DNA of 64,000 bases, from positions 62,001 to 126,000 of the forward strand of contig QPGO01000079.1 of assembly GCA_008632985.1 (NCBI GenBank). The letters are read 5' to 3'. Both the position numbers and the translations under genes were made by a program. Below, one piece after another: positions 7,641-60,299 of the stretch (the first letter of the stretch is position 1; every line of letters starts with the position of its first letter). This DNA comes from Psammoneis japonica (Eukaryota). The notes below the pieces were generated by a model, which worked only from the letters and a program-made list of their open reading frames with translations, ran no database searches and was not told the origin of the DNA.

Positions 7641-10600
7641 TGTGTGCAACCCCCTCTGGTTGACAATGCCTGCTGGCTGCACTTGCCTCCCCAGTTGCAC
7701 ATTGGGGTCACTTGCCAAATGGCACAATTTGACAGATGTCGACAATGTCGTCGCGTTTGAGACCTGTGCTGAGCCGCTGGTGTGCGATGTTGTCATTTCG
7801 CAGGGTCCAGCACAGGGCTGCTCCAATTTTTGAGAGTTTTTCCTGAGCAACATTTTCCTCTCACTCTGCAGGTGCAAGAAGTGTGCTGAGCATTTTCTCA
7901 AGCATTGTTTCTGTTTGTGGCATTTTGTTTTTGCCCCTGCACAAAGCTCCAGCCAGCGATGTGTTGGACATCAAATGTCATGTCTCAATTGAAGACCAGC
8001 TGCCCTGGTGCAGCTTGCACAGCAGTGTGACAAGTTGAATGCACTGCAAAGGCTGCTGCTGACAGCATTCCAGAAAATGGATCCTTTGTGTGGAGAGGAG
8101 CATTTTGCAGGTCAAGTGTGCACGGCATGTGTTGCCCAGTGCTTGGCGCACATGCTCTGTGATGGCATTGGCTGGCTTGTGAATTTTGCACAGTTGTGAG
8201 CCCACATTCAATGCTGCAATCATCTTGGGCCAAAGTTTTAAATTGATGTCCCCAGCGGGCTTGCTTCCACAATCATGAGTGGTCGACAAAGGCCAGCGAC
8301 ATCTGCTTGGCCATGTTCGTCATCCCACAAGTCCAGCAACAGTTGTGTGGGCCCCTTGTCATTTGGAATTTCCATGACCTCAAACCAGCCAGTTGCTGGA
8401 TCTGTCATTGTCAAACACCCCAGAACTGGGGTTTCTTCTTCCCTTTGCAATGCATTTTGTGCGGCCCAATGAGATCCACACATGATCTTTGCCGCGGCGC
8501 TCATTTTTGTTTGTGATTTCTTGTTTTTTTCTGGACAAACCTCCAACCAGCCATGTGTGCTGGACATTGAAAATCGTGTCTCTCTCAAAGACTGATTGTC
8601 CTGGTGTGGCTTGCACAGCAGTGTGGCGCGCAGAACGCACAGCAAAAGCCGCTGCTGACAGTGTGTTGAAAATGGATCATCTGCATCCATGGGTGCATTT
8701 TGCAAATTCAGTGCACGCAGCACATTTGCATGTGGATTTTGTGCAGCTGTGAGCTTGACTTCAATGCCGCAATCATCTTGGACCATGTCCTTGAACTCAT
8801 GATGTCCCATGAACTCACTTCCATGGTCACATGCAATTGAAAATGGTCAAGGACATCTGCTTGACCACATCCCATCTGATGGTCCAGCTGCAGTCATGGA
8901 TTCCTTGTTTGGGATTTTTGTGACTTCAGGCCATCTGGTTGCTGGATCAATCATTGTCAAACATTGCAGGGCTGAGGGTTTCTTCTTTCCCTTGTGACAC
9001 ATCTTGCATGGTCCAACAAGACTCGCACACAGCCATTCCCACAGCATTGCTTCTGTGCACTTTTTAAATTTCTGGCATGTCTCACATTTCAACACACACC
9101 TTGCATGTCTTCACACAAGCCAGACCATGTCAAGTCTTGTGAGATTGTCTCTTCTGTTTGATTTGTGCCAGGGTGCAGAAGATGTGTGTGGCACCAATCT
9201 GTCACTGTTTTTGCAGCATCTTTGGCGCGACAATTTTTTCCTTGTTTTGTGACATGTGGGCATTGTTTGATCTCCCTTGCCTTCACAAAAAGTCTTCACA
9301 TGACATGTCACATCCAACAAATGGAAGAGAATGTCTTTTTCCCCTTTTTTGTGTCAAGAACTTGGCATGTTGAGGGAAAGACATTGTCGTGGGATTTGGG
9401 TGTGACTTTCTCAGCAAATTCTTCAGTGCTGGGGTTTTCTGCAAGTTCAGTTTTTTTTTTTCACAGCAAGTCAGCTGATTGCACCTGTGATCTGTTGGCC
9501 AAACAGCACATTTTAGAGCTCCTTGAGAGTTTCTGCAATGGGCAGCAGCTCCTTTTCTGTTGTGGTGTGGTGTGTCTGTGCTCCATTCAGCTTTCAGCTT
9601 TTGCCAGCTTTGGGAGACAACAGGTTGTTTGTCCTGTGACATAACCACACCCAGTTGAGAATTGCTTGCATCTGTTCATGTCTCAAAGGGTTTGTTGAAG
9701 TTCGGGTGTGCCAGCGACATGTCTTCTGACACAACTTGCTTCACATTTTTGAAGGCTTTTGGTCAGTCTGGCTGGAGGAGCAAGTGTGTGAGATTGTCAA
9801 GGCCACATGTCTTGACAACAGTTGGTCATGCAAACAAAACATTGCAGCTCTTTGCAAGTTTCAGGAGCAGCAATCAATTGAATTGCCTCCACTTTCTTGG
9901 AGATTTGTCTGACACCTTTCTGCAAGAAGATGTGAAACCCAAGAGGACAGTCTGCCTTGAGTCTTGTGAAAAAGGATTTTTTGGCACTGACTTTGAACCA
10001 GCTTGTTTGAGCCACATGAATGTTGTTTTGAGCTTTTGAAGATGATCTTTAAAGTCACTTTTTGTCAGGCACAGCATGTTGTTGACTCACATCCTGACAA
10101 ATTCCAAGCCTGCCATGAGCTCACTCATGTGCTCTTGAAAAACATCTGGAGCTCCACAAATTCCCACAGGGAGCCTGCAGGAGTGCTTGCATTTGCCCCA
10201 CAGCATCGCAATGGTGCACAAACAACATGTGTGTTTTGCCAACTTGATGCAACAATGTCCCATGTTCAAATCAAGTGACATTGCACAAATGAAGCCCTTG
10301 AGCTTCTGCAGCATGTCTTGAACATTGGGTGGAGGATGCGGAGCACACATCACCTCGGCCCAATTCAGCTCACAAAAGTTGGTCAAAAATCAAACTCCAC
10401 TCTTTTTCTTGTGGGTTGAACAAAGGTTGGAGCTGCCCACTCTGAGTGGTTCATTTGTCTCTTGAGACTCCTGTCTTGCAGAGTCTTTTGGCTTCCCTTC
10501 AAGTGGTTGCTTCCAAGGCTTGTGGAACAGGAAATGGCTTTGCGTGGTGTGGGGTTGCACCTGATTTGATGCAAGATTGACCAGTTTTCCATCCCACATG

Positions 10601-12225
10601 CCTGAGGAAAAACCAACAAAATGATTTGCTTCTGCTCCTCTGGAGTGAGGTGAGTTGCTGCTGCAGTTGCATTGTTGAGGTCAGAAGTGTGACAGCCAGT
10701 GCCCTGTTGACCCTGTCATTGAGGCTCTTCATGGCGCGAGATTCCTCAATGTGATTGTCAATCAGCTTCAAGACCTTGGCATCAAAGAATGCATCTGCAC
10801 CCTTCATTGGTGCAGTTGCACCCTCCCATTTGATTTCTTCATCATTTGCAAAATCAAGTGTGATTCCAAGACTGCTCATCAAGTTGTGTTCCATGATCAC
10901 ATCATGTCACCATGAAGAAGAAAGAGTGCCACCCACATGTGCCGTCTTCTCAATCATTTCATGCTCATCCAATTTGGGCAATGAGAACTGTGTCTTGCAT
11001 TTGCTGTCAGTTGCAAAGAGCCCTCCCTTCTTTGGTTCTCAATTTCTGTGTGAATTTGCACAAAATTGTGATCAACAATGTTCTGTCATCAAGAAGAACA
11101 CACGGAGGCTTGTTTTTCTCTTTCTCCAAGGAAGTGTTCACACAAGCAATGACTGTTGGACTGGCACAAATTGTTTTGTCCTTTTTTCTGGGCTTCCCAA
11201 TGTCCAGTGACATGTGTGACTCTTCAACAGGCACCAGCCATTCCTTGGATTTGCTGCATGTCATCGGCTCTCTTCACTGAGAGCATTGGCACTGCAATCT
11301 TTGCCCTTGTGCTTTTTGTCACTCTTCAATGAACTTGCCTTGAGAGTTTTGTTGATTGCCTGAGCAGCCATGGCATTCTTCAACTCTTTCTTGTGAGAGG
11401 CACCTCTGTTGTTGTGATGCAACCACATGCAATTACCACTTGAATGTTGCCATTTTGGGTTTTGTTCAGAACTCTCATGGCGTTCCTCAGCTGGTCTTTC
11501 AATGATCCAGGATTCACCCACATTGTGGGTGGTCTTTTCGTCACAACAATTGCACCAGCACTTGTTGGACTCAGAATGTTTGGCACCTGGCAGGTGGCCA
11601 TTTTTGGGGCCACGTTGAAACCCACTTTTGGTTTTAGAATCAGGGTCATGCTTGCTGTTGGCATCAGCCTTGACATGAATTTGGTCAAACATGTCTTCTG
11701 CAACCTCCAGATGTTCCAAAAACTCAACCAGCAACTTGTTGAAGGTGTGGTCCAAAATCTCAAAACCTTGTGCAGTTGACTGATGCTGCCACATGCAAGG
11801 TGCAACGTTGTGGACAACATCCCATCTTCTTCCAGATGTTGGTTGGCTTTAAAGGGAGGGTGGAGCTTAAAGTCTTCAGTGACCTCCAGAGCTCATGTGG
11901 TGATTTCTTGAATCTTCATCAACTCCAGTTTCTCTTGAGATCACAGTGCAGATGTTGTCTCTGGCTCTGAAGTGCATTCTTCAGGAAGACATGGTTTGAG
12001 AGACAATCCAGGCATTTTTCAAAGGCTCCTTTGGCTTCTTCATCATCTGTGTTTGTCGCCTCATTCTCAAAAACTTGGAGAGTGCTCCCCTGCAACAACA
12101 TGTGCATGAGCCAGAACCCATCAGCTTGCTTCTGAATGCTCTGTCCAGCCAAGACTTGACAACACATCTTGAGGAATTTGGCGCACTTGGGGGCTCCTTG
12201 TTTGTTGCAGCACGTGGCACTGCAA

Positions 12226-12410
12226 GAAAAGTGGAAAATTGTGAGATCAGATTTTGTTCTGAGGTTTGGAGTTTCTTCAAAGGCACTCTCAATGGCCTGA
12301 AGCTTTTGCACTGCTTCTGCAAACTGAAAGCCTTGCAGGGAATTAGACCATGACAACAGATTGTCTGGATGTGATCAACATTGACATCTTGTGTGTCATC
12401 ATCATTGTCC
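12226..12410 (-). repeat. LTR-like repeat, copy 2 (truncated, joined to gag)
   Basis: Shares AAAAGTGGAAAATTG..GATTTTGTTCTGAGGTTT..TCAATGGCCTGAAGCTTTTGC..ACAACAGATTGT with 7473-7633. Confidence 0.8.
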
Positions 12411-15400
12411 AATCACATTTGCAATGTTAGACATCCGATCACATCTGTGTGATTGATCTGTCCTTTGCAAGCACCCATGAGTGATTGTGGTGTGATTGGC
12501 ATGTGCAACAATGTGCAACTGTGAACATGTGCAATTCCTTCCACTTGAAAATGTGCACGTTGCACTCTTGAGCCCATGCTCAGAATCTGCTTGAGCCATG
12601 ACTGCCTGTGCAGGGGGCAATCTCATCTCCACTGCTGCTTTGATCCAACAAGGCTGTCCACACTGATGGCAAACCCTGGCATGTGCTCAGACAACCTGCG
12701 CCAGATGGCGGAAGTGTTCTTTTTGCTGAGCAGCTGGACAAACTTCAGACCAAAAGAATGAACATGAGAGGACCCAATCTTGTCATGTTTTTTGCCACAA
12801 TTGATGCAACCAGACCAGCTGGTCAAGGGGGGGGGGGGCTGAGTCAAGGAGGGTGTTGGAGTCAAGCAGGCCAAGGAACATCCATGTGCATGACAAGAAG
12901 AGCACACCTGTCTTTTGCTTGCTTGTTGGAAACATCCCTGATGCTGTGCTGATCACTCAGTCATGGACCAAGCAAACCCAGCAAGGTTAAAATTTGAGTG
13001 AACAGAGGTGAGAAGCAAGAAGGCTGCAGAGTTGCACAAGACATGTGCTGAGAAGTGCACAGATCAAGAAGGCTTTTCAGATGTCAGGCCCCCCTGCCAT
13101 GGCATGTTCTTTCTGATGACTTGGAAACTCTGGATTGTGTGTCAGGTTGCCCAAAAATTGCACACTTGTTGATCCCCAGCAAAATCTTGCAGCTGTTGTT
13201 TTTTTTAATCTTCTTTTTCATCACACTGTGGGTGTCAACCCAAAACAAAATGGCCACAACACCTCAGCAACTGAGCCATGGCCCCTTTGGCAACAGCCAC
13301 ATCCCCCCAGCAGACCACCCACAGCTCGTTTCAGGTCCTCAGGGTTGCTGGCTCTCATTGCAAAATCATGACAAGGGTGTGCTCACATTTGGACCACATT
13401 GACAAAAAGCACTTCCAAGTCAACCAAAAAATGAGAAGATGCAAAAAAGAAAACTGTGAGATTGTTTCCCTGTTGCATGAAAAAATCAAAAATCTTCCTG
13501 TTTTGTCAAGCCAAAGGCTTTTTGTTGCGGCTGTTTGTGAGAACAAAAACTGGTTGGGCACTCTTGAATGTCTGCAGAGTGTGCTGAGCAAATCAGTTGC
13601 AGCATGCTCCAAGCACAGGTGAGCCAACTTGATTGCAAAATTGCCACTTTTTCTGCTGGTGACCATTGATTTGTTCATCACCTGATGTGATGTCCCACCA
13701 AGTCCCACCCTGGGCTGGAGTTCATCAAAAACAAGGATGAAATGCACAACCTGGGTTGTTCCCACTCAGCAGATCAGCTTGCTTCTGCTCTCTTGACATT
13801 CCTTGCCTTGCCCACCACCCTTGGATGAATTGTCAATGTGCCATTGGTGTGTCTCATGATGCCAAAGCACAGTGTGCTGTCATCCATCAGCCACCAAAAC
13901 AGCGCAATTTTGCAGCAAGCAGCCCATCTGCCAGCCAGAGCAGCTGTGGTCATCTTCTTGAGAAAGCTGACAATGTGCTGCTTCAGCAGTGTGCCTGTGC
14001 TGTCAGTGGCTGTGCTGTCACTCACTGGACTCCCTGCAGCTGGAGCCATGATGTCTCTGGTGAGACAGAGTTTTGCCACAAGCTCAAGCACAAGGGGGGA
14101 AGTGCAAAAGACCTTGTTTGCACACCTCTTCCTTCAAAACCCAGTCTTTGCCATGCTGTTGTCATGCACTGGGAGACAGCCACAAAGGAAGAAAAAATGT
14201 GCACAGTCAAAAACAAAGCTGGAGCAAAAGAAGAAAAGCAATCAAGTGTTTTCTTTGCAGGGCAAGAAGAAAGAGCTGCTTCTCAGCATCACAGCACTGA
14301 AGAAGCTCAGCAAAGATCAAGTTTTGAAGATGCAGGAGCTGGCCAACCAGGCACTGAAAGAAAAAGAGAACAAACCATCAGAAAATTGGGGTGCCTTTTC
14401 AGAAAAAAATGGCTGCAAAGGAAAATGAGGAATTCTCAGGCATCTGCAACATGTTTCTGCACTTGACAAGAAGAGAAATGAACAGCAATTGCAATTTTCA
14501 CATTGTTTGTGGTTGCAGTTTCCTCCAGTGCACAATTTTCACAAATGTTGGATGTGCTTTGTTCTGTCGTTTGATTTGTGAACAATTTTGTTGTGGTTGC
14601 CTTGGCATCAAGAGTGCAATTTTCATTTTGCAAACTTTGATCTTGTCAAGAACTTGCTCATTTGGTTTTGGAAGGACTTTTCCATTTGATCACCCAGCAC
14701 AGCCTGCATCACAGCCAGAGCTTTTTTGTGCATCTCGCGCAAAAAAGCTCATTGCCACACAAACCCATTTGCTCCAACAACTTCTGAACATGACAACAGG
14801 TTGGGGGGGTGCACGGTGACAGGTCGGTGCATGGCGGGTGCACTCTGTCATTGGCAACACAGGGAATGATGCAGGTGAGTTTGTCCCTTGTGTGCTTTTG
14901 TGTCTTGCTCAGCAGCACACAAGCAAAGCTCACAGGGCTTGGTCAAGCAACTGACAGACCTGGTGCTTGTGGACAGCCCTGCAGGTGGGTTGAGCACTGT
15001 GTTCACTCTGTTGCCAAGTTGGTCAACAGATGACTCTGAGAGTGTGTGGTGCCATTGCTGGTCAATCTTTTCCCATTGGGCAACCTGGTTGTTCAACTGT
15101 GGTGATTGGAAAACCAGACCCACCAGTCTGCTTGAGATTGGATGTTGCTGAGAGTGTTTTTCATGGTTGACAGCTTCAAAAGAGTCAGCCAGCACTCCCA
15201 CCGGTTGTGTGTTGCAGCTGTTGGAGGTGGCGCTGTGCTGTCATCAGACAGAATGACCCAGCTCAAGCACTTTTCAGGTGGCACTGTCACACTGCTGATC
15301 AACTGAAGCTCATCTCTGGCTGTTGCCACAATGACTTCCTCCAGCCTTTGGAACAATGTGCAGAGCAACTGCCAGCTCAAGTGCCAAACTGTTGACCCTC

Positions 15401-16726
15401 CCAACTGCAGTGCTTTCATGCCACCAATTGTTCCATCTTGTTGCTTTGTCTTGGCTGGAACTCTTGAGTTGGTTGGTGGTGGAGACAGCTGCGCTCTGCA
15501 GTTTGCAAGTTCAAGTGCGCTGCTGCTGTTGGGAACAAGGTGACATGGGCCCACAACCCCACAAGATGAACCTTGCAATGCTCAGAAACAGTTCTCAAAC
15601 TGTTTCCTCTGGAGCCCGCCAGAGACCACCAAGGTTGTCAGCTTGCAGTTGTGAGGTTGGTTGCCACCACTGTGAGATCTTTTTGCACTTGGGAGCTTCA
15701 AAGTCCAAGTCTTCTGCTGTTGGGCACAACATGACACATGGCTGCAGAACTGCAAGATCAGCCTTGCAGTGCACACTGACAGCTCTCAAAATCTTGCCTG
15801 GGGTCTTCCAAAGATTGTCAGGGTGGTTGGTGCTGTGACAGCATTTTTTGAATTTTGGACTTGGGAAAGTCAAGTGTCTTGCCCTGGGCCTGCCAAACAC
15901 CACCAGCACCCTCCTTGGCTCAGATCTGTCAGCTTGGTTGGTGCCAAAATGGCGTGCTTTTGGTGCAACATTTGGGAACTGAAATTTGTTGCTGTTGAGA
16001 ATACAAGGTGACATGAGGCCACAACACCACAAGATCAATCTTGCAACTCCCAACAGCAGCCTCAAAGTGCTGCCTGTGGCCCACCCCTCATGCTGCCAGT
16101 GTCCTCAGCTTGCAACTGTTGGGTTGGTTGGTGCCATTCAGTGCACTGTGCTGTCCAGAAATGCAATTTTCTGAACAACAGAGGAGACATCCATTCCGAC
16201 AAAGCGCCTGCACCAGTGGAGTGAAGAACCCTCAGCTGATGGATGTCGCTCTCCAGCATTGCCACTCCTCAATTCAGAAAATGGCAATGCCGTGCGTTTG
16301 AAAGACGCTAAATGCAATGATCTCGAACGTTTTGAACATGCAAATCACCTTGTCATCTTCTGCCCTGAAAATGCTGTAACCGCGTTTGATGCAGCTCTAG
16401 TCGCACTGTCTCGCTTTCGCACCACTTGATGTCTAATCTCAGCACTGTCGATGCTGTTGGCGACATCGCTGTGGAAGCAAAAAAGGATGACCGCAATCTA
16501 TTGACGAGAAAACTGGTTTTTCAACAAGCCGTTGAGCACTCAAATGGACAAAAAACAATTCGCCTATCATTAATGGTATGAATTACACTAAATAACAGTA
16601 AATAATGTCACATAAAGATCACCAATCACCACTGTTCATCTTTCTGGAGTAGCAACAATCCAGAGATCATGTACAGTGCGATGTTTGCAAACAAAACTCT
16701 GAGGCAGTAGCTGTTCTCCCTTTCAT

Positions 16727-17125
16727 TTACATACTGTCAAGGTAGTTCGATGAAGCCGCGGGATGCTGCTTTCCAGCCTTTGGGAGTGGTTTGGCACTCT
16801 TGGGTCCACCTGGCCTTACACCGCCTCCTCCGCCACCTCCGGATGCCATGCTAAGGTAATTTGACGAAGCTCCTGGATGTTCTCTTCCGACCTTGGGGAG
16901 AGGCTTGGCACTCTTGGGTTTGCCAGTATCAACGGCTACAGCTGCCGCCACGGGTTCCGGAGCGGGAGCGGCGGCCTTTGCTTGTTCGGCAAGTCGAGCA
17001 TCCATGTAGTCCTCGTATGCGCCGCTCAAAACGCCCGCAGACTTGGAAGGAAAGGAAAGCTGAGCATTGAATGCAGAGGCAGTCGTGACGAGCGCAGAAA
17101 GGAGAATAAGCTTGGTAGGTGCCAT
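16727..17125 (-). CDS. Small plastid-targeted low-complexity protein with two C-terminal repeats
   Basis: Signal peptide ending TASA-F (diatom ASAFAP-type bipartite presequence). Repeats PKSAKPLPKVGREHPGASSNYLSM and PKSAKPLPKAGKQHPAASSNYLDSM. Normal composition. Confidence 0.85.
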   Translation of the reverse strand: MAPTKLILLSALVTTASAFNAQLSFPSKSAGVLSGAYEDYMDARLAEQAKAAAPAPEPVAAAVAVDTGKPKSAKPLPKVGREHPGASSNYLSMASGGGGGGGVRPGGPKSAKPLPKAGKQHPAASSNYLDSM

Positions 17126-17487
17126 TTTGATGTATCAAAGAAGAAGGTGACAGGTTGTGTGGCACGAAGGCGATTGAAGTGATGGCTTCTCGCTCTCGTC
17201 GGCGGAACGTTTTTGTGGTTTGGCGAGGACCAACCTGCTTCAGCGAGGATTCAAAGATAAAGTAGCTTCAGGTTTTAATATTTTTATTGATTCCACAAAC
17301 GTCATCGCGGGGGCTTCTCAAATGACGTCGGACAACGCGCAGACGGACGCCTGACAAACCGTTCCCGCCATTTTTAGCGCCGCGCGTTGGCTATCGCACC
17401 AAGAGCCCAACGTCCCAACGTCGAACACAACGGAAGTAAGGGACTTTAGATAGGTTGAAGCTTGGACAAGAGAAGAAGACGACAACG

Positions 17488-18623
17488 ATGAAGCACATCG
17501 CATGTTTGTTATTATGGTTTGTCTTTTTTCCGGTGTCTTTCTCGTGGATGAATTTAGCGGCAACGTCCAGGAGAGAAAATGCTTTCTCCGTGCGATCTCG
17601 TGCCAACACATTGCTGCTTCGCACAACAGAAACGGAAAATGAAAATATACATGAAAAGCAACAAAAGGATGCCAGTCTAGCTAAGGAAAGAGCCCCTTCA
17701 AGTCAGCAGCAACAAGAAATGACAGCCCAACAAATCATGGCGGCATTGGGGACGTCACCACGTCGAATCGCCCTCTCGGCTTTGTCTGCAACAGCGCTTG
17801 CCTTGGGTGCAGACTTTTTGGGAGTTACAGGCAAACTTCTTGGACTTTTTCCAGAATCTGCGATTGAATCGTCGGGTTTGGATACGTATTATCCCATAGG
17901 TAACTGATGATTTGTGAAAGCATCTTGATTTAGTGTGACCACCTGGGTTGACTGACACCGTTTCGTTTTGTTGCTGCACAGGAGGATTCAAGCGAGTAAA
18001 GGGGGGTGGATATTCTTTCTTGATACCTAAAGAGTGGGTCGGAGACACAGCGCTAGAGTTGGCAAAGGCTCAGAGAAAAGCCAAGGCATTAGATTATTAT
18101 TCTACAAGCCGTAGATCGAGTAGTGGAGGTGGCGTCTTGCCGGACACAGGTAAGGCCACGAGATTGGCTTGTTGACTCTGTTCTCTTCGTTATGAAAATA
18201 TGCTCATCTGAACTTGCTCCTGTAGCGTTTGGACCGCCTGGAAGGCTCAATTCTAAAGGCGTGTCTCAAGGAGACACCAATGTATCAGTCGTCCTGTCCA
18301 AGGGCATGGGCAAATCATCCTTGTCGGAAGCTCTTGGTCCTCCCACGGAGGCGGCCGAAACCTACTTGCGAGTGTCGTTGGCTCCTGAGGGTAGCGGACG
18401 AAGTGCCACCTTGTTGGATGCAACTGATAGCGACAACACGTATCGATTTGAATACGAAGTCGATCGAGGTAGCAGGGGAGTGCCACTTCGAGCGATTTCA
18501 GTTATTGCAATCGACCAAGGCACACTGTTGACACTCACAGTCGTGGCACCAAAGGAAGACTGGAAGAATACAGAGTACGAGGCAAAGCTCCAGAAGGTTG
18601 CCGCAAGTTTTCACTTGAAATAG
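17488..18623 (+). CDS. PsbP domain-containing thylakoid lumen protein (PPD7-like), 3 exons
   Basis: Exons 17488-17899, 17982-18149 and 18226-18623 join in frame via GT-AG introns. It has a signal peptide, an RR plus hydrophobic segment, and the motifs LGADFLGVT, LDTYYPI, WVGD, AFGPPG..NVSVV, YRFEY and LLTLTVVAP..VAASF. Confidence 0.9.
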
Positions 18624-18821: not shown

Positions 18822-21800
18822 TCATTCGGATTGATTATTCTCCGCATTGGTTGAATTACTCTCTTGGTTTTCTTTGTCTCCCTCCGATGCATCGCTGTTC
18901 CTGGCATCATTGTGATCGTGGTGTTCCAGCTCCATTCCTGTCGACGACAACACACCATCGTTGTTTGCATTTGCTAGTAATGGTGCCTGCGCGAGCGAAA
19001 ACATTCTGGGAGTCCGGTGCAGCTCGCTCTCGCCCGCAACTTCATCCACGACCGGTATGGTAGGTGCAGGCGCCAATGGTTGTTGCGGCTCGTCGTCGTC
19101 ATCATCATCGTCAAAATAGGATTCTTCCGTCTCTGTTTGACGAAATTTTCGTTGGTCTTCCATTGCCTTTTCGCTCAAGTGATGCTGCGGCCGGGCGCTA
19201 GAAGAAAAGTACCGAGAAGTGCCTCCACCGTCAGATTCACCGGCTTGTTCCTTGCTCTTGGCAGCATTCAGGCTCTCCTCATAGCTTTGACGGAGCACAG
19301 TTAACGTATTCACATATGGAGTGGAAACGTCTTCCAAACTCGGTATCTGCGCGGATGTGTTGGACTTAGGGCTTGTAAGAGTAGTTGACGGGATCAAGTG
19401 CTTCGAAACAATATACTCAATCAAAGACTTGATATTTTGGTCGTGTATGAAGTCACACATCTGCAAGAATAATGGATTGCAATTGTGAGAACGGCTCAGT
19501 TTCAGTCATTACGGCAATGAATCGATGTTAGGAACTGCCGACACTCACCTCGATAATGGCAGAAGAAACAAGATTGTCTCCTACTGGGTTCGAGCGGAAC
19601 GCTTCAAAGACGGGGGCGAACAGGTTGTGTTGAATAATGTGTCGATGATAAAACTCGTCTTTTACAGAGAGAATTGCCCGTAAGAAACTAGAACAGCAAG
19701 GCATGGCGGCGTAAGAACTCTGCAAAGAACTAAAAGCTTTCTGCGCGACACAAACATCTTACCGTATCGCCGCGAGCTTGAGGCACCGGTCGCCAGATGG
19801 TGCAGTGGGTGTTGCGGGTGGTGCCAGTACTTTCAGGACGCTCCCCAGCACACGCGATCGCAAAAGAAATAACTTCATGCGGTACAGATGCGCTCGCACA
19901 CAAAAGTTTAACAATTCCACTGCAAAAGAACTCCGAATCGAGCATGGTGACACTGTGTGCAGAAACACCATTGTGTGCTTTTCGTCGATGGTCGCAGTGC
20001 TGCTATTCATAAAGGCTTTCAGTATCTTGGACATGAGTGGAGAAGACGACGGCGACGCAATGACTGACGCTGGAACAACCCGTAGTGGATGGAGAATCGT
20101 GAATTGAAACGGAGCTACCAGCCACGAAACGTAGTGCTCGTAAAACATGGCCAGGAACTGATTCTGGTCAGCAATATGACTTTCCCCGTGATGGTGGTGC
20201 CCGTCATGTTCCATGGAGTCAAGGTGCGGACTTCCCGGTGCGCTTGATCCCTCAATGCTGTTTTCCTCCCCAAGACCCACTCCCATGGGGCCATGCTCTC
20301 CCAGCAGATCAGTGTCAAGGATAAATCGCATAATTTCCGTCGACTGTAGCAACAAACCAGCATCCGTTTCTGTTGCCAGCACAAAGAGCAATGCTAACAA
20401 CAAGTCGTTGGTTGCACAGTAAAAGATAATATGGCGTTTCTCGTTTGGAGCCGGTTTCGCGGGGCCCTCGATACGATTTTCCTTTTGTTGCGAGTCCAAA
20501 CAATGCCGGCGAACGTGACAAGGATCGTGCATGGCTATGGTCGAGATAATTTCCAAGGCTGCTCCCTTTTCAGTAGTGTCCACCGTGGGGTCGGACAATA
20601 CCGTGCCGAGTAAGCCCAAGAGATACACAGCGTTTCCATTCTCGATAGAACTCTTTGCGTCGCTGATATTAGCTTTTGACACTGCCGAGGGCTGGGATGC
20701 ACTTGCTTCCTCTTTGTTTTCCTGGGGCTCTTGCGATGATTCGCTTCCTTTGGATTCTTGCTTATCGTCACCCTCCACTGACGTTTCTCCTGGAGAATCT
20801 TTTGCTTCGCTGCCGTTCAAGTCCACGGCTGTGCTGACAATGTCGGCAAAGAACACGTCCCTTTCATTCTGCTGCAGAGATATCCGCACCATGTTGAACA
20901 ATTCACGCAGAAATGATAAGCAGCCCCGTCGGCGCATCTTTCGCGATGCCAGTGATTCATCCTGAGGTACCAAGTGTTGCTTCCAGGATGCATTCGTTGA
21001 TTCCTTTTCTGGTTGGTTTGGTATCGGAGACCGAGGCCGTACTACCGGCGGTGGCACCGGCGTCCCGTCCTCGGTGGCTCTTGTTTCCAATTCTTCCCAT
21101 TCTAATTCCATAATGGCTGTTATTTCTTTGCCCAGCAATCGAATCACCTGTACCAAATAGCTATCGCCAATTTCTGTATTCTCCACGTTTTCTTTGGACT
21201 GTTGTTCCTCTTCCGACACATTCATTGTACCGCTTGTCACAGCCTTGACAAGATCGGCATGCGTAAATGTCTGTAATGATGTTAACGTCGAAAGACTCCC
21301 TTCATCCATGGTGGGTCTCAGCAAGGTATCACGCAAATATGTTACTCGAAAAGACCGATGAATCGTCGCCACCAATTGCTCGTCTTGCATTGGGACGACG
21401 GTTCGGAATTTCGCCCGCTCTCGTAAAAACCAGCGATGGTTGGCCTTGTCTCTCAAATCTGGATCGTATTCCAGAGTCGAACAAACGTTTTCAAAAATGA
21501 CCTGATCCGCTACAATTAACTCAATAATGGACGGGTCATTCAGTAAAAGAATCGTCTTGATGCAGGCGGCCAACGTTGCCAAGGCACCATAATCTCCCTT
21601 GGATTCGGCAGAAGGAAACAAGGCCAATAAAGCTTTAAGGTATGAACACTCTTGTTGTGATATATACATGGCCAAGGCATCCCTCAATTGCAACTGTGCA
21701 GCGGCAATGGTATCGGCAATTTCTTCCAAATGACCCAGCGTGGGAGGGTTTGGAAGCTTGGGAGCCGCGTGAGCAGCAGCAGCATCGTCATGGGGTGATT

Positions 21801-22794
21801 GTCCCGAATTGTCGCTATTGTAGGTTGCAGCCGCGGCTGCCGCCATGCTTACTGCGACAGCGTCACTGCCTTGTTCACGATACTGTTCGTCCGACGATGC
21901 ACCGTGAGATGATGATTCCTGTACATTTCCCCACATGTCGTGCGGCTGTTGTTGATCGTGCTGTTGCTGAGATGAAAGATCACTCCCTGTCGTAGTCCCA
22001 GGACCCATGTCAGAAGTTTCACTCTGGTTGTACTCTCCTTGTTGCTGCGCAGAAGCAGCCTTTTTCGAATCATGTACATGATGCAACAGTATGCCTCGGA
22101 CACGAAACCACTCGGTCGCTCTGGATTGAATATGAGTAATTTGACGCCAAATATCCAAACACCCCGCATTGTCTTGAAACGACAAGGCCAAATCGACGCC
22201 ATTTTTGGAAGAATCAAAATGAGGTTCACACCACGTAATAATGTTGTCGCCCTGACGTTGATAGGCTTCGCGCAATAAAATACGTGTTCTCAACAGAACG
22301 GTCTTTTCTTCTTCGGATTGCATAACTAGAGTCGGTTCTCCCAATTCTTGATACAAGACCGCGTCTTGATCAAGTGAAGGAGCCTGACCCGACTTTTTGT
22401 AGGCGCACACGATGCGACCCGTCCCACAGTCATCCCACGAGCCATCCGCATTGAGGCGATACAGCTTGACTCTCCATCCCTCGGGTTGCTGCATGCTTTC
22501 GCTCGTATTTTTCCTCTTGACAGCCGGCGCATCGTCATCCTCGTCCGAAGAAGAACTGGACGACCCAGAAAAGGTGGAAGCCACGGCGGTATTGGTTGTT
22601 GTTGTTGCCTTGAGTTTGCGCTTTCGCTTGTTACCCAACTGCATGTGTATTCTCGGCGTGCCCGTGTGAGTGTTTGCTGATGCTGATGATGTATGGCTGC
22701 TGGGAGGCGTCGAAATGTTTGCTGAGGACTGCTGTTCCGTTGTATCTATAGCCTGAGTAGATCCACCCGGTGAGTCCGTCAAAGGCGAAGTCAT
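18822..22794 (-). CDS. PPP4R3: Protein phosphatase 4 regulatory subunit 3 (SMEK/Psy2 family), 3 exons
   Basis: EVH1-like [46 protein letters not shown], and SMK-1 region [17 protein letters not shown]. Exons 22794-19763, 19687-19549 and 19460-18822 with GT-AG introns. Confidence 0.95.
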
Positions 22795-24593
22795 GGTGAT
22801 GCAATGCGGCGGCTTTAGTGTGTGTTGTTCGTTTTCTCAGAAATGCCAAATCACATGTCCCGGTGTTTTTCCGTTTTCAACAGAGACAAATTGTGACGTT
22901 CTATTTCCCTCTTTGTGTCTCATGCCATAGTTCATACAACGTATAGGTATTCCAGCTTTCTCTATTGCTCCAATGATGCCGTATGCTTTGCTCTGTGTTG
23001 TGTTGGAAGTAATCAATCGCAGGCACTGCACTTCGCACTTTGCGTTGTTCTTTTGCTTTTTTTCGTGTCGCTCGGCCGCAGCGGTCGGCGCTCGCGTTGT
23101 TGACTCTTTTTGGTACCGGTTACCACCTTATGGTTCCACGTAGAAGTTGTACCGGGCTTACTTACCCTGATTATCATAGGTATGTGGCTGGAATGATTTT
23201 TAGAAATTTAGAGTAGATTTCTACGCAATTAGTGCAACACGTCACCAAGTTGAAGTTCATTTTGTTGGAGGGAAAACAAAAAGCACGAGAATTATCACGT
23301 GCCCGGTCTCTCGACGATGATGCTCACAGCTTCTTGAAAATCCATGGCTTTTAGCACTACGACCTACACCCACCTTGCCAACCCACCTGTGAAGCTCCCT
23401 GAGGGCCGAAGTGCAAAAACCCATCATGTCTGATGTCCGAAAATCGTTCGCATCACAACACATGCATCGGCTGTTCTTGGATTCTCGCGTTCAGAATCAA
23501 TGGATGCCAGCAGACCTGTGGACAGAGCACTGCAATGCAAAATTCAACATCAATGATGAGAGAGTCGAAAACAGGGGCAGACAATTGAAGAAGCCGTGTG
23601 GCAGCATCAACGGGGTTTCGAGTTTGACGGAAGAGAACAACGTTGTTGCTGGCGGGTGAATTTGTGCGAAACGGAATGCCAACATGGCAGTCAAGCCCAA
23701 CCCCTTTCCCGACTTTACAAATCACTTGAAGCAACTCAAGGACGAAAACAAAGCCCGTGCATCCCGGTTCTGTGCTGACCTGCAAGACGTTTTAAGGATT
23801 GAAAACTCCCGAACCTCCGTTTGGACACGAGAATCTCAATCACTTTGTCGGATCCAAGTCTTTGGCAAAAAACATTGACATTTGTCATGATCTTGCAAAC
23901 CCAAGTTGTTCTTTGCCACCGAGCATCAGCAAGGGCATCGTGGGAGCACTTCCAATGGGTGCAATTTAGGATGAGACGATTTTGAGGATTGCAGCTTTTT
24001 GACAATCAACTGACATCATGCTTTTGAATTGCCAATGACGATGGCTCGTTGTTGTGCTGCCAGAGGCTCATCTACACTGCCGTCTGCTCGCTTTGAGAAC
24101 GAATCGGCTGCTTGCGCCTTCTCTGCCAACAGACGCATGTTTGGTTTGAGCAGTGGGCAGACAGGAACGGGTGCAAGTTTCATCTCTGAATGCACACCCC
24201 AAACAACACCACTGAACCAATCGAAGGAGTGCAAGCACTGCTGTCACAGCTCTAGAACAGTTTGTGCCCCACCTGCCCACGTGGTGTCGGCAGAAGAGAG
24301 CAAAGCCAAAGGTGGCATCAAGCGACGACGGCATTAGAGGCACCAGCAACTGGCAACAATTGTTCCACAATTCAAAATGCAGCAGTGCTTCATTGCACAC
24401 TTTTCCTGTGGAGATGCTTGCCTCTTGTGCAGACATCTCGAAAGGATCTGCACCACTTCAGCATCGCGCACATCACGTGGGAGTGCGAGTGGTCTTGACT
24501 CCAAAATGTCATTCTGAACTGGCGTGGGAATGCACAGAATGTCTTTGGGCTTGTGCAAAAGGTGAGTGTCGAAACCTTTTCCTGCCACAGAAA

Positions 24594-25097
24594 ATGGGAA
24601 AAGAGAATTTCAAGAAATCGGCTTCAGATGCGGGGGGTGACACACCTCTGCACAATGCTGCCAACACCAGGATGGATGCTGTTGCAAAGATTTTGTTGGA
24701 GGAAGGCACTGATTTGGAAGCAGTTGACATGAGGGGATGGACCCCGCTGCATTTCGCATGCATCGGCAACCGCGCAAATGATGTGTTGTGCGTGCCCATT
24801 GAACGAGGTGCAAATTTGAATGCAAGAGACAATGACGGGAGAATTCCGATTGATCTTGCAATCACAAAAAAGGGCCTCGACCCCATGATGTTGCTCTTGA
24901 TGGAAGCTCATGCAAGACAGCTGCTGCCCATTGACAATGCCCATCCTGATTCATGGGCACAAGCGCTTGCATTGGTTGGACACAAGAAAACCCAGATCAG
25001 GCTGAGTTTGCTGTTTTCTCTGCTTCAAGCGAAACCCGACTTGTTGGAGCACTCACAATGCGAGCACAATGCAAGGAAGTGCAAGAGGTCCGATTGA
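24594..25097 (+). pseudogene. Ankyrin-repeat protein remnant inside domain B
   Basis: GDTPLHNAA..VAKILLEEGTDLEAVD..GWTPLHFAC..ERGANLNARDNDGRIPIDLA; contains no Tyr codons. Confidence 0.8.
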
Positions 25098-25949
25098 TTG
25101 GTTCTTTCCTTCCTGTGGTGCATTGTTCTTTCAAATGCCGAAAGACACTGGGTTCTTCTTCAGTGGCATTGGTGTGTTTCTCTGTAAGAGCGTTAGATTT
25201 CAAAGCAGAACATTGTGTGTCAGAGCACAGTGCTCCATGCCAGACTCAAGTTCTGTTGTAAATTGGTGTTGTGTTCACTGCCACTTTCATTCCTCAAAGG
25301 GAATCGGACTGCCGGTGCGGCATGAAGCCGAGCACCACCTCATCCATGACAAACCGTGCAACTTCATGAAAAAGGAGCAGCACAGCCATCAGAATCTAAA
25401 CAAATCATTGCGGCCACGATCGAAATCTTTTTGTTGCGCTGCTTCCAGGAGAGATCTGAAAATGTTGAGAACTCGAGTCTAGTGCTGTCCCCTGTTTTCA
25501 TGTGATGCTGCTTGAAAAGTGTGCCAAAACTTCCTTGTGCCCGTCTCTTTCGCAGAGGCCAAGCCAACTGCTGCGCGCATTTGTCACAAGAACGAAAACA
25601 ACAATGGCCAGTCGCCAGGGCATGAACAAATGTCCGCTGCAAAGTTGGTGTCTAGCTCAACCTGCAAGTTGCAAAAGAGCAAAGGAAATGCTGTTGCACC
25701 CACTGTGTGAAAAGCGTGAGCTGGAAGATTGTTGAAACAACAATTGCCAGTTGTGCTGCACCAGTGCTGCAGCGAGAAAAGGCTGCAAAATTGTCGTGCA
25801 GTTTCAATCCACTGCACAAAACCTGACGCGTGAAGCCGCGAACTGGAAGATTGTTGAGCAGGGGTCTGGAAGTGTGGGTTGTTGGCCCACTTTGTCAGTT
25901 TTGCCAGCCAGCTGCACAGCAGCACTTTAAGCTGGGTTTGTGTTTTTTC

Positions 25950-28420
25950 AACTGTTTCTCTTTGATTGGCAAAATGAGGAAGTCTGGGATTGAGCTGCAG
26001 AGCATCTTGATTGCCCACTTTTGACACCTGAACCAGCCTTGCAATTTTCACTTTTGGCAGCTTGTTCATTTTTTAGCTCTTCAGGGCACAGCACACCAGC
26101 AGCTGACTTTGCCAAAGCACTGTCTCAGAAGTGCTTTTCCAACTTCTTTGTTCTTTGCCAGCAAGTGTCTTCTTTCTGTTTGATTTTCTTGCAGAGCTGG
26201 CCTTCTTCCAGCACTTCAAAGTCACCCAAAAAATGAAGTCTGGAATGCAAAGCCTCTGTGCTGCCACCCCAGCCCCATTGCTCAGCTCCTCTCAGACAGC
26301 AAAGCTGCCAGCAGCAGTGTTCACACCCCAGAAATTGTGGGTGCTGTGTTCTGAGCACCATGGTGACTGATGAAACATGCAGAGGGAGGGAGAAAGAGAG
26401 AAAATGTCTTGCCAGGGCCCACCTTCTTCACAGCATGTGGTGTCAAAGCCTTCAGGCTTCAGGTGCCATTGCCATCAAAGCCACAAGTGCAAAGTGCCTT
26501 GTGACAGCCAGAGAGCTGCAACTTTGGCAACATCTTTTTTTTCCCAAATCTTGGCACCACATTTTCCTCTTTGATGCCACCACAGAATGCTTTTCAGCAC
26601 AGCAAGTGTTGAGAATGCTTTGTGCCAATGCACTTGCCCACAACCACTGCTAAAACAACCAGAGAATTTCTGGCCAATTGGAAAAATGAGGAACTTTTGG
26701 ATTGTTCTGCAGAGCATCTTGATTGCCTGCTTTTGATGCCTGAAATGGCCTCACAATTTTCACTTTTGGAAGTCAGTTTGTTTGTCCCTCTTGGCTTTTC
26801 AAGGCACAATGCACACCAGCAGCTGACTTGTTTGCCAAAGTGCCACGTCAGAAATGCTCTTTCTCAACATTGTTCTTTGCCCGCAAATGTCTTTCTTTTC
26901 CACTTTCTTGTGAAGTTCTTCCAGCCCTTCAAAGTTGCCCAGCAGTGCCCAAAGACAAACCAGTGGCTGCGAATGATCACAAATTGGTGTGCCCAGGATC
27001 TGGCAGCATCTTTGCTTTGACAGCAAGCACCTGCTTAGAGCAGCACCAATGCAAGCTCAGCAACATCATGGTTTCTTCTTGGCCCTGGAAAGCACATCAT
27101 CAACAACCAGCGGGAATTGTTGTTTTTGTGCGCTGGCGCTGTTGCTGCTGTGCATGACTTTCTGACATCTCCAGTCACAGAGTTGCTGTGTTGCCTGAAG
27201 CAGCCTCATAATTTTCACTCTTGGAAGTCAGTTTGTTCATCCCTCTTGGCTTTTCAAGGCACAACGCACTGGCAGCCAACTTGTTTGCTAAAGTGCCATC
27301 TCAGAAATGCTCTTTCAACATTGTTCTTTGCTTGCAAATGTCTTTCTTTTTGACTTTCTTGTGGAGTTCTTCAAGCCCTTCAAAGTTGCCCAGCAGCGCC
27401 CAAAGACAACAAGCCAGTGGCAGTCAATGACCACAAGTTGGTGTGCCCAGGATCTGGCAGCATCTTTGCTTTGACAGCAACACCTGCTTGGAGCAGCACC
27501 AGCGCAAGCTCAGCAACATCATGGTTTCTTCTTGGCCCTGGAAAGCACATCAACAGCCACCAGGACTTGTTGTTTTCATGCACCAGCATTGTTCCTGCCA
27601 TGCATGAGGGGTGAGAACATCTGTGCTTCTGACATGATCCAGTCACAGAATTGCTGTGTTGCCTGGAACAACTGGAGGCAAACAGATGAAGTCAATGAGA
27701 AAGTGCCTTGTGACAGCCAGAGAGCTGCAACTTTGACAACATGACATTTTTTTTTTGCCCAAATCTTGGCACCACATTTTCCTCTTTGATGCTGCCACAA
27801 AATGATTTTCAGCAAAGTGAGCATCAAGAATGCTTTGTGCTGACACACTTGGCCACAAGTGCTGCTCAAACAACCTGAGAATTTCTGGCTAATTGGCAAA
27901 ATGAGGAACTCTTGGATTGTGCCACAGAGCATCTTGATTGCCCACTTTTGATGCCTGAAACAGCCTCACAATTTTCCCTGGTGGAAATCAGTTTGTTTGT
28001 CACTCTTGGCTTTTCAAGGCACAGTGCACCAGCAGCTGACTTGTTTGCTAAAGTGCCATCTCAGAAATGCTCTTCCAACATTGTTCTTTGCTCAAGAATG
28101 CATTTTTTTTTAATTTCTTGTGAAGTTCTTCCAGCCCTTCAAAGTCATCCAGCAGGGCTGAAAGACAAACCAGTGGCTGCCAAGGACTGCAAAATGGTGT
28201 GCCCAGAACCTGGCTCCTTTTTTGACAGCAAGCACCTGCCTGGAATGCTGACACCACAAGCTCACCAAGACAGGCCCAGGAAAGCACCTCAACAGGACTT
28301 TTGTTGTTTCTTTTGTGCCAGTGTTGTTGCCATGGGGTGGAGAGAGCATCTGTGTTTCTGACCCAGCCACAGAATTGCTGCATTGCTTGGAACAATTGGG
28401 GTTGCAAGCAGATGAATGAA
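25950..28420. repeat. Degenerate tandem array, four related units
   Basis: The core ..CAATTTTCACTTTTGG..TTTTCAAGGCACA..CAGAAATGCT..CTTCCAGCCCTTCAAAGT recurs in units starting near 25970, 26680, 27200 and 27895. The block AAAGTGCCTTGTGACAGCCAGAGAGCTGCAACTTTG occurs at 26491 and 27700. Confidence 0.85.
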
Positions 28421-31198
28421 TGGAGCCCACATTGGTTGCTGATGGTGATCTGCTGTCTTTTCTGGTTTTTTGTTTTGGCAGAAGTGCCTCCTGGCTTCTT
28501 GTTTGCACAAGCCCCACTTGGTGGCAAGACTTCCCTTGAGATCTTTTCTCAGCCATGCTTGAAGGTCCAATCTCAGCTTCCTCTGCGGCTCTGTCAAATG
28601 ACATTTGTTCCTTTGCTTTGCAGACCACCAACAATTGGTGAAAAAAGGTCAACAACAAGTCCACTGGCTGTTTCATCTGTGCACTTTCCACTGAATGCAT
28701 GCTGACTTTCTTGCTCTGCTGTGGCAGGTGGCGCAATCTCCACACTGCTGTTCAGCGCCAAAAACATGTGGAGGAACAACAGCATGGGCATTGAGAGATC
28801 TGCTGGTTGCCAACCTGCCATCTGTGGAAAGTTGGCTCTGCACATGCACAACTCTGCATGTGGTGTCCTGCAAAAATGTGGGAAGGGTGCTTGGCGACAC
28901 TCTCTCTCCTCCTGATCTGCTTTGCATCCCAAACAAGGAGCAGAGATCAAACCCCCAGAAAAGTCCCAGAAGACAGAAACAGGTGCTGGGCACACATGCC
29001 AAACAGAACAATGAACCACACAGCTTCCAACTGTCTGTGCAAGATTTGCAACCACAGAGTGCTCAAAGTGACAACTTGTTCTCAGCCCAGCTGCCAGCCA
29101 GCCTTGGGCTGCAATGAACAACCAAGAGTGTCAGCATGTTTCTAGAGCACATGCTGCTCCTCTTTGTTGGTGTGTGGCAGCTGATCTTTTGGGTCATTGT
29201 GTTCTGGCATGTCATTGACAAAAAGTGCCAGTGCCAAGCTCTCATGTTGAGAAACCCCGCCCCCCCCCAGCTCTGCCATGATGAAGTGCAGGTGCTGCAA
29301 CACACTTGTTTTTCTCTCTCCAATTTTGAACAACCACAAAACTCAGCTGAAGTGAAGGCAGCTGCTTGCAAGAGCTGATTCTTGCACACAGATGTCTGGC
29401 GACAGTTCCCATCTGGTGGCAGCTGGTGGCTGCCTCCAATGTCTGTGTCCAGAAAATGATCAGCGTGGCTCTAACTCTGTGTGTTTTCTGCCCCCTCACA
29501 TCATCAAATTGGTGGCTGACAGAGTTGCCCTGTTTAACCTTTTGCCATTGGCATCAACATGAGCTGGGCTTCAGCGGACAAGCCCCCAGCCAGTTGCTGC
29601 TGGGGCTCCCCACAAATCTCCCAAAAGATTGGGCCCCCATTGGCGGCCATGCACAGCACATCATGTCTCATCCAACTGCTCCATGTGCATCCTGCCCACA
29701 CAGCCAGGGGTGTGGCTGACAGAGTTGTTTTTTGCTTTTTTCTTTGGTTGCAGGCACCAACAAAGTCCACAACCTGTGATGGCAGATGAAGAACCCAGTT
29801 GTCCTTTTGGGGGGCTCACACAAATCTGTGGCCTCTTTTGAAAATTGTCCTTCACTGTGCACACAAATGAGAAAGGAGACTTGCTCAGAGTCCGCTGATG
29901 TTGTCATCTGTGCCCAGTGCACAGCTCCTTTGGCACCCTCTGAGGCAACCTCCTGGTGTGCCATGGCTCTGTGCACGACACCCAGTGTTTTTGAGCTTTT
30001 TTTGCTGCTTCCCTTTCTTTCTCTTTTTGCTTCTCCTCTTGTTCTTTTTAAAGGTGTGCCATGGCAAATTTGACACTCCTTTCCTTTTTCCAATGCTGCA
30101 TCATCAGCAGAGGTCTCTGTGCCGCAGCACAATGCCCTTGGCCCAGAGAGCTTGGCTGAGGGTTGAACCTCCTCTCTTCTTTGTGCATCACTTGCTGCTG
30201 GTGCTTTGCTCAAATGACGCTGCTCTGTTCAGGAAACTTCTTTGACCCCTCTCTTCTCTGGAGAGCACCAGGTGGCTGCTGTTCTGGGCTGGTGCTCCTC
30301 AATGGCAAGCAGCCTCTTTTGCACCATGTTGGTTGCAAAAGCTGTTGGAGGTGAAGCAAGAGGGTGCAGCGCATCGTTGCCGAAATTGCGGAAGGGCCCG
30401 CACATCATTGCCGCCATTTTGCACCTTGAAAGAAGATCTTCCCACCGCAGAACAAAAACAACATTGTCACAACAACGAACGCGGTGGATCCTCGTTCGAA
30501 AGACAGACAATGGAACGTTCCGATGAATGAGAATTCAGGCGCAGTAATTCATTTGTTCACACGTCAGTGATTGCTGATCTCACACGTTTGTCAGTGACCA
30601 ACGACATTTCTATGGGAGAGTCATTCTTACGTGGTGATTGGAAAGGTCGTACGGAAGGACTATCATTGCCCAATGGACAATTAGTCATCCTAGCAATCCG
30701 ACTTTTTTGCTGCTACTTAACCGGGTCATCTCAACTGGATCTTAGGTGTCCAAATGCATTATGTGCCATCTTTATTGTTTGACATTCTTGGTTTCTGTTG
30801 ACAAAACCAAATAATTACGTTCGTGGAAGTCTTGATAAATCAAAGAGAGCCGTTGACCACTGATTCTTCCATAGTGACGGAACACCACATAATACTTATA
30901 GATGTGACAGTGCAGTATTGCGAATTGTGAAAGATTTTGCTCTTTTGGCGCCAAAAAAATTGTCCACCGGGGGGCAGATTTATGAAATTTTGGCCGACCG
31001 ATCACCAACAAACGCACCCAGTGGTTGGTGGAAGCTACTGTAGTGCTCCGTCCAACAACCTGCTCCCAGTCATAGCTTGCAGGGACTATTTCGTCGCACT
31101 CGAGAAAATAGGAAGCACTTTAAGCCATTCATATCTCGGTTGTTCGTGTTCTACCGTTGGAAGGAACTTCGTTTGAAAACATCGACTCTGACAACGAC

Positions 31199-60260: not shown

Positions 60261-60299
60261 ATGCAAAAACAAGAGAATCTGCTCACATGTCCAGGTGGT

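Follow-up and report, generated by a model that had tools for sequence, protein, structure and literature searches.

Flank-dependent loss of TA dinucleotides in transposon-derived domains of the diatom Psammoneis japonica, with YTAR as the prevailing residual context

Results

TA-depleted domains in the analysed contig

This study concerns a 64,000-nt stretch of the diatom Psammoneis japonica (assembly GCA_008632985.1, contig QPGO01000079.1, positions 62,001 to 126,000 of the forward strand; hereafter the window) of nuclear origin, in which transposon-derived domains have lost nearly all TA dinucleotides (TpA), and the TA steps that remain lie mostly in the tetramers TTAA, TTAG, CTAA and CTAG (YTAR). 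The window as a whole shows observed/expected ratios of 0.29 for TA, 0.54 for CG and ~1.5 for TG and CA, and this deficit of TA and CG with its surplus of TG and CA arises because of four sharply bounded domains, called by a two-state hidden Markov model on TA density across the window. Domain 1 (7377-16308, 8,932 bp) contains 14 TA, 11 of them in YTAR, and has a CG-depleted core at 7800-16196; domain 2 (23366-30544) contains 25 TA, 20 in YTAR, with its CG-depleted core limited to 25840-30369; domain 3 (39072-41761) contains 8 TA, 5 in YTAR, around a core at 39116-41158; and domain 4 (45861-63050, 17,190 bp) contains 36 TA, 22 in YTAR, with a core at 45942-62825. The four domains hold 83 TA in 35,991 bp (2.3 per kb), compared with 1,189 scored TA in the 28,009 bp outside (~42 per kb), and the open reading frames (ORFs) of the host between them have normal TA. 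GC content is equal inside and outside, CG falls to 5-9 per kb in the cores against ~55 per kb, and the excess of TG plus CA inside the domains (~2,892) is roughly in balance with the ~3,054 missing TA plus CG.

Domain 1 carries a degraded Ty3/gypsy pol gene (reverse transcriptase, RNase H and integrase) on the minus strand at 7849-11029, which gave a Pfam RT_RNaseH_2 match and 240 homologues, and which is flanked by a direct repeat pair on the plus strand, a remnant of a long terminal repeat (LTR) at 7473-7611 and its partner at 12227-12364. A second plus-strand LTR pair, 55602-55921 and 62419-62750, lies in domain 4. Neither the three read-through frames of 56001-62300 nor the 20 ORFs inside the domains matched any Pfam family, and tblastn of the pol homologues on 55901-62420 yielded 13 high-scoring segment pairs, too few to use.

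Flanking bases of the residual TA sites

An earlier sequence-only reading of domains 1 and 2 had claimed that the remaining TA are mostly YTAR, and this was borne out at the scale of the window: YTAR accounts for 58 of the 83 TA inside the domains and 177 of the 1,189 outside (Fisher odds ratio 13.3, p = 1e-26; p = 1e-17 for the inside share against a flat 25% null). The residual YTAR comprise 24 TTAA, 15 TTAG, 13 CTAA and 6 CTAG, while the other residual TA are 14 RTAR, 10 YTAY and one RTAY, the latter being ATAC at 16002, close to a domain edge, compared with 353 RTAY outside. The share is 31 of 39 in domains 1 and 2 (p = 3e-18), and it was replicated in domains 3 and 4, which the earlier reading had not used (27 of 44, p = 9e-12). 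The YTAR observation is real, strong and replicated. The coordinates and tetramers that had been listed all hold, each coordinate marking the start of the tetramer with the TA one base further, and the statement that ATA, GTA, TAC and TAT are nearly gone agrees with the counts (9, 6, 9 and 2 inside; 323, 362, 355 and 325 outside); the list had, however, overlooked 10 of the 12 TA that lie in the domain 2 margin at 23366-25839, as well as the effect of the second flanking base that is described below. In the 28,009 bp of host DNA, YTAR is under-used, making up 15% of the TA with TTAA as the rarest tetramer (33), probably through stop-codon avoidance on both strands, and the scarcity of YTAR in host DNA makes the enrichment inside the domains more striking.

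Relative to the density outside, survival is 0.255 for YTAR, 0.033 for RTAR, 0.024 for YTAY and 0.002 for RTAY. These survivals multiply, as the geometric mean of 0.255 and 0.002 comes to 0.024 and matches the mixed classes. Such a relation would be expected if the A on one strand were hit without regard to the other, with the base 3′ of each A determining its rate. When a per-strand multiplicative model was fitted, the cumulative hazard for A in T-A-N was 0.25 with A, 1.23 with G, 2.81 with C and 3.16 with T as the 3′ base, so that T-A-G is lost ~2.5 times more slowly than T-A-Y, and T-A-A more than 10 times more slowly. The comparison of all 16 NTAN tetramers inside and outside the domains, which the sequence-only reading had proposed, thus shows that depletion is unequal across contexts: the per-strand model beats equal hazards (likelihood-ratio test 171.5, 3 degrees of freedom (df), p = 6e-37) and fits all 16 counts (deviance 12.1 on 12 df).

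The second base 3′ of the target (+2) also matters. A occupies this position in 60 of 95 TAA half-sites inside the domains against 151 of 500 outside, and in 28 of 45 TAG half-sites inside against 169 of 518 outside. The word T-Y-T-A-R-A, which has both outer flanks, occurs 17 times inside and 15 times outside, a survival of 0.88 that leaves it essentially untouched, while YTAR survives at 0.30 with one T..A outer flank and at 0.046 with none, and non-YTAR at 0.019. The refractory word on a strand is T-A-R-A, with A at +2 adding to the protection.

Direction and strand of the TA losses

Mutations were polarised by tblastn of the 240 homologues onto the DNA of the pol remnant, over 599 conserved columns. 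Among the 23 conserved Tyr columns, none retains TAY, whereas 11 read TGY, 6 CAY, 1 TGA and 5 something else. The polarised single-step changes comprise 33 TA>TG, 22 TA>CA, 12 CG>TG and 25 CG>CA, the remainder being 33 other transitions and 42 transversions, and the 55 TA>TG/CA losses compare with 16 A>G/T>C changes at non-TA sites. It could be held that there is no mutator preference at all, because the elements were always TA-poor or because YTAR is kept by selection for function, and the host NTAN spectrum, in which YTAR is likewise unevenly represented, lends this some colour. However, the host bias runs in the opposite direction, against YTAR, the elements are full of stops without a Pfam match in their 20 ORFs, and a single pol remnant with no conserved Tyr codon intact records 55 TA losses; we consider this alternative extremely unlikely.

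The per-strand model predicts that YTAY is converted to YTGY and RTAR to RCAR, while RTAY may go either way. The polarised losses followed this prediction, YTAY going to TG in a ratio of 15:2 and RTAR to CA in a ratio of 7:1, which gives 22:3 combined (p = 8e-5). Because codon position can hide one of the two outcomes, a strict test was restricted to Tyr (TAY) and Ile (ATA) codons, in which both outcomes alter the residue, and it gave 12:2 in the predicted direction (p = 0.0065), with the symmetric RTAY at 8:7. Both strands are hit about equally, with 16 TG (coding strand) and 13 CA (template strand) in the set where both outcomes are detectable.

The accumulated products show the same asymmetry in all four domains. 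The excess of YTGY plus RCAR inside the domains is 31.5 per kb (bootstrap 27.4-35.7), compared with 9.7 per kb (6.4-13.2) for YCAY plus RTGR, and the symmetric-class controls are near zero, there being no difference between RTGY and RCAY or between YTGR and YCAR. The claim of the sequence-only reading that TA before a pyrimidine or after a purine is the preferred substrate is therefore upheld by the hazard fit, by the strand choice and by this product asymmetry, and the context-specific rates that it had asked for from an element alignment come out in its favour, since the strand of loss follows the flanks in the pol remnant.

Erosion after integration

At integration, both LTRs of an insertion have the same sequence. 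TG/CA discordance between them therefore indicates that the copies were mutated separately, in DNA and after integration. The pair that flanks the pol remnant differs at 4 TG/CA-discordant dinucleotides in 136 aligned bases, with a residual TTAG at 12343 that is TTGG in the partner, and the pair in domain 4 at 8 in 318. TA erasure is thus a DNA-level process that acts after integration on both strands. Within domain 2, four tandem units at 25965-28420, each ~500-760 bp long and 76-89% alike, carry 7-15 TG/CA-discordant dinucleotides per pair, which indicates that their duplication predates most of the erosion; parsimony polarisation on these units was not relied on, being ambiguous under a strongly biased process.

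These findings bear on the alternative that double-stranded transposon RNA was edited by an ADAR-like enzyme and the changes were fixed by reverse transcription. Such editing shares with the present case the A-to-I chemistry and the repeat-derived targets, the affected DNA is retrotransposon-derived, and ADARs favour a 5′ U according to the Discussion of a preprint on Bigelowiella natans (Mettrop et al., bioRxiv 10.64898/2026.01.13.699255). However, ADARs act on RNA, while the two copies in each LTR pair disagree at TG/CA sites and so record change in DNA after integration, and TA loss passes the LTR ends and crosses a margin with an ankyrin-repeat ORF (see below). In addition, ADARs prefer a 3′ G, with 5′-UAG given as the hot spot of wild-type ADAR2 (PMC10661471), yet TAG here has a hazard of 1.23 compared with 2.8-3.2 for TAY. 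RNA editing is therefore a very unlikely source of the erosion.

Domain 4 also contains a ~1-kb piece at 59110-60169, between its LTR-like repeats, that has ~72% identity to 10802-12477, the 5′ part of the domain 1 element, in opposite orientation, which indicates that domain 4 is a nest of elements. When contigs of run X1, the one assembly-like run that contained the window, were aligned to it at 80% likeness, 1,177 pieces aligned, with 1,427 differing places, and their summed depth reached 1,200-2,800 over 57500-61099, except for the bin 58100-58699 (187), compared with ~140-330 in bins outside this stretch, and several loose contig ends at 57500-61099 contain CG and TA. The pile-up and these ends indicate that the genome holds many relatives of this element, some of them apparently unmutated. 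Two degenerate patterns taken from 60088-60121 were also run against metagenomes, with 0 matches for each.

CG erosion and the domain margins

The TA-depleted zone is wider than the CG-depleted core at all 8 boundaries, by 44 to 2,474 bp. The resulting margins lie at 7377-7799, 16197-16308, 23366-25839 and 30370-30544 in domains 1 and 2, and at 39072-39115, 41159-41761, 45861-45941 and 62826-63050 in domains 3 and 4; in that at 23366-25839, TA is lost and most CG is kept. Since the TA zone reaches beyond the CG core at every boundary, the two erosions can be told apart and the TA process spreads more widely, which suggests two separable processes. The margin at 23366-25839 contains an open ankyrin-repeat ORF of 277 aa on the plus strand (24264-25097) with no Tyr among its 277 residues. 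Its Cys (4.3%) and His (5.1%) contents are raised, its DNA has 1.2 TA per kb while CG stands at 34.8 per kb, and it looks like a gene that has suffered collateral TA erosion. A homologue search with it returned generic ankyrin-repeat similarity only (25-50% identity, no orthologue), and hence the margin is not polarisable.

The CG erosion has a context of its own. In the pol remnant, 37 CG>TG/CA changes were polarised next to the 55 TA losses. The erosion hazard by 5′ base is 1.46 for T, 1.18 for A, 1.14 for C and 0.57 for G, so that T-C-G is the most mutable and G-C-G the least, and GCGC is the best surviving CG context in the cores (35 inside and 94 outside, 0.376). The polarised strand choice favours the C in Y-C-G by 14:3, or by 9:2 with Arg CGN codons only.

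Host genes between the domains

An intronless ORF of 1,011 aa on the minus strand (19759-22794) encodes a PP4R3 phosphatase subunit, whose best named database matches, at 47-52% identity, come exclusively from diatoms (Cylindrotheca, Nitzschia, Seminavis, Fistulifera and others). A second intronless ORF, of 1,818 aa on the plus strand (31157-36613), encodes a STAND-type protein with an NB-ARC/APAF1-type NTPase followed by many TPR repeats, and lies in DNA of normal composition between two eroded domains.

Discussion

Based on these findings, we propose that a DNA-level process acts on transposon-derived domains after integration and on both strands, converting TpA to TpG, or to CpA via the other strand. 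Its per-strand rate depends on the bases 3′ of the target A, fastest at T-A-Y, slower at T-A-G and slowest at T-A-A, with A at +2 slowing it further, and a TA would persist only if refractory on both strands, from which it follows that residual sites should be YTAR and above all T-Y-T-A-R-A. The likeliest chemistry would be an enzymatic deamination of adenine to inosine in DNA, the inosine being read as G, and it could be targeted to silenced repeat chromatin; 3′ purines might protect the target A by stacking on it and hindering base flipping, and a separate or coupled CpG erosion runs alongside. The data establish in which direction TA changes, that this happens after integration and on both strands, and how the flanks govern it. 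That a flank-dependent TA eraser acts in DNA is, in our judgement, very probable. The adenine-deaminase chemistry is put forward tentatively, at somewhat less than an even chance, while the explanation as a whole, a flank-dependent DNA-level TA eraser with adenine deamination, we hold on balance to be the probable one.

Several points weigh against this proposal. The polarised sites all come from one element, and the tetramer frequencies of the ancestral element were estimated from the surrounding host DNA, which is only a stand-in for it, so that the absolute survival of the rarest words is soft; TTTAAA, for example, occurs 8 times inside and once outside. The product asymmetry is confounded by the CpG erosion, which is biased the same way (14:3), and yet it is still present in the margins without CG loss. 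In sequence, A>G on one strand is indistinguishable from T>C on the other, so the chemistry is not identified by sequence. Furthermore, two of the four residual TA that fall in alignable pol columns, and are hence polarisable, most likely arose anew through C>T/G>A changes, judging from the residues of the homologues. One is the minus-strand codon TAA at 9513-9515 (TA at 9514, in the refractory word TTTAGA), where homologues have R (15), K (5) or H (1), and the likely path leads from CGA through TGA or CAA to TAA; the other appears re-created in the minus-strand TTT AAA at 10048-10053 (TA at 10050, word TTTAAA), where homologues have F followed by E (51), D (19) or K (13). The residual TA at 9065 and 9642 are compatible with ancestral TA. 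Finally, a pure creation/destruction equilibrium fits the census worse than pure survival (deviance 26.1 and 12.1, respectively), which together with the re-created sites makes the census a mixture, and a creation model with 5′ context (Y-C-A to Y-T-A) gives a deviance of 24.4 on 12 df (p = 0.018), so that the census alone does not cleanly reject it.

Re-creation must indeed be common, given that background transitions of other kinds are frequent (18 in 318 aligned LTR positions) and that the precursor pool for back-mutation inside the domains amounts to 8,088 TG/CA steps (NTGN plus NCAN), 24% of them of YTAR type. A model in which TA are made anew regardless of context is rejected (chi-square p = 4e-21; deviance 115 on 15 df). 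A stronger version of the argument would have a context-blind TA eraser, with YTAR made later by C-to-T changes in a particular context (Y-C-A to Y-T-A, and the complementary change), for instance through an APOBEC-like 5′-pyrimidine preference or non-CG cytosine methylation. The two re-created sites speak for it, as do the tolerable fit of the creation model with a 5′-base term to the 16 tetramers and the split of YTAR into 17, 37 and 4 sites with two, one and no T..A outer flanks, which is near what one required flank and a background second flank would give. However, the strand choice (22:3, or 12:2 under the strict test) concerns TA that have been destroyed and owes nothing to the residual sites, the survival model leads by ~12 units of the Akaike information criterion at equal parameter number, one-sided creation predicts far more YTAY and RTAR than the 24 observed against 58 YTAR, and the 8 polarised non-CG C>T/G>A events have no single preferred context. 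We therefore regard a context-blind eraser as quite unlikely. The residual census is best read as mixing true survivors with re-created TA that persist only where the flank-dependent eraser is slow, namely in refractory words. The sequence-only reading had called the residual TA surviving, which suits 9065 and 9642 but apparently not 9514 and 10050, and it had named YTAR newly made by C>T/G>A changes as the finding that would speak against it; two of four such cases are of this kind to the letter, but the substance of its inference stands, since the strand choice does not depend on the residual sites. Its main inference thus holds with three amendments: some TA are re-created, the rule includes the +2 base, and the parallel to TadA is no more than an analogy.

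The indistinguishability of A>G and T>C also admits an explanation from the thymine side, in which an enzyme modifies the T of R-T-A (for example a TET/JBP-type enzyme that oxidises it to 5-hydroxymethyl- or 5-formyl-uracil). The altered base would then pair wrongly with G and yield T>C, with no adenine deaminase. All our sequence results are symmetric in this respect, and thymine hypermodification with a TpA bias, which is known in dinoflagellates, counts in its favour. However, the only experimental precedent is read by its authors as adenine deamination, a reading itself unproven (Mettrop et al., bioRxiv 10.64898/2026.01.13.699255). No sign of such a modification in diatoms came to light, though no search was aimed at it, and we consider modification of thymine rather unlikely, albeit less so than the context-blind eraser.

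That precedent is the chlorarachniophyte alga B. natans. According to the preprint, 231 mutations arose during mutation accumulation in two stretches of integrated viral DNA, of which 230 are A>G/T>C, all 230 at TpA; the genome contains TpA-poor clusters that are rich in CpA and TpG and enriched for transposon domains (reverse transcriptase, DDE); and an ADAT2-like deaminase is proposed (bioRxiv 10.64898/2026.01.13.699255). As described there, the two cases resemble each other in the A>G/T>C change at TpA, which gives TpG or CpA by strand, in the long-term TpA-poor, CpA- and TpG-rich signature, and in the confinement to foreign or mobile DNA, here in four sharp domains of which one has the Ty3/gypsy pol and two have LTR-like pairs. 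They differ in the host, which is a diatom here, in the spectrum, which is almost exclusively AT>GC in B. natans whereas in the cores analysed here CG>TG/CA changes are roughly as common as TA losses, and in the degree of erosion, which is nearly saturated in this window (2.3 TA per kb against ~42 outside). The main text of the preprint makes no mention of a flank rule or of CpG co-erosion, although a supplementary table may hold flanks. Our literature search found no account of TpA erasure in diatoms, and the B. natans preprint is the sole description of the phenomenon that it found. The erosion in this window appears to be a process of the B. natans kind that has come close to saturation in the retrotransposons of another lineage, and it has CpG erosion and an explicit flank rule in addition.

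Among other systems, repeat-induced point mutation (RIP) of fungi resembles the erosion reported here in that it destroys repeats within limited domains, at the DNA level and by transitions only, and also reaches into the adjoining sequence. RIP of ascomycetes acts by C>T, mainly at CpA. It yields TpA-rich, GC-poor repeats, whereas TpA is erased here and CpA and TpG accumulate, and the TpA depletion and the CpA/TpG enrichment (observed/expected 0.29 and ~1.5) together with the unchanged GC content do not match fungal RIP. The CG half of the erosion is like the CpG decay of methylated transposons and the T-C-G-biased hypermutation that Horns et al. reportedly described in basidiomycetes in 2012, in that CG is eroded to TG/CA and T-C-G is the most mutable context, but neither explains the loss of TpA.

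As for candidate adenine deaminases, the natural site of bacterial TadA is U-A-C-G, and the substrates of eukaryotic ADAT2/3 are mostly U-A-G and U-A-A, with G or A at position 35. TadA and ADAT2-ADAT3 convert A to I, read as G, as would also be the case here, and a 5′ T or U before the target A is common to both. The 3′ pyrimidine found here likewise recalls the U-A-C-G of TadA and the 'YAC' context in which one engineered variant, TadA-8e A48E, is reported to edit A in DNA (PMC13109818). However, T at +1 is here about as good as C (3.16 and 2.81), and the +2 effect is a protection by A and not a requirement for G; the parallel to the TadA site U-A-C-G that the sequence-only reading had drawn therefore serves as an analogy only. 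In the case of ADAT2/3, the words of its substrates (TAG and TAA) are the very words protected here.

In conclusion, a natural genomic A-to-G mutator has been reported only recently and in one alga, B. natans, and TA erasure in a diatom genome would widen the phenomenon across a major eukaryotic group. It is conceivable, though doubtful, that a DNA-editing defence of old origin, targeted through chromatin, is common to diatoms and chlorarachniophytes. In it, a base-flipping T-A-Y adenine deaminase and a Y-C-G-biased cytosine erosion would together erase TA and CG, the two self-complementary pyrimidine-purine steps, from invading DNA, T-A-R-A refractoriness being the signature of the enzyme. 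The flank rule provides a target for assays, with T-A-Y as a good and T-A-R-A as a poor substrate. Any enzyme put forward has to show this preference, for which ADAR-like and eukaryotic ADAT2/3-like specificities are no obvious match. The flank rule also provides a signature for searching other genomes, namely TA-free, TG/CA-rich blocks with YTAR as the only TA left. If true, a natural DNA adenine deaminase would be of interest for base editing and genome defence, and the T-A-R-A signature could guide the search for the enzyme and reveal edited DNA in whatever genome it occurs.

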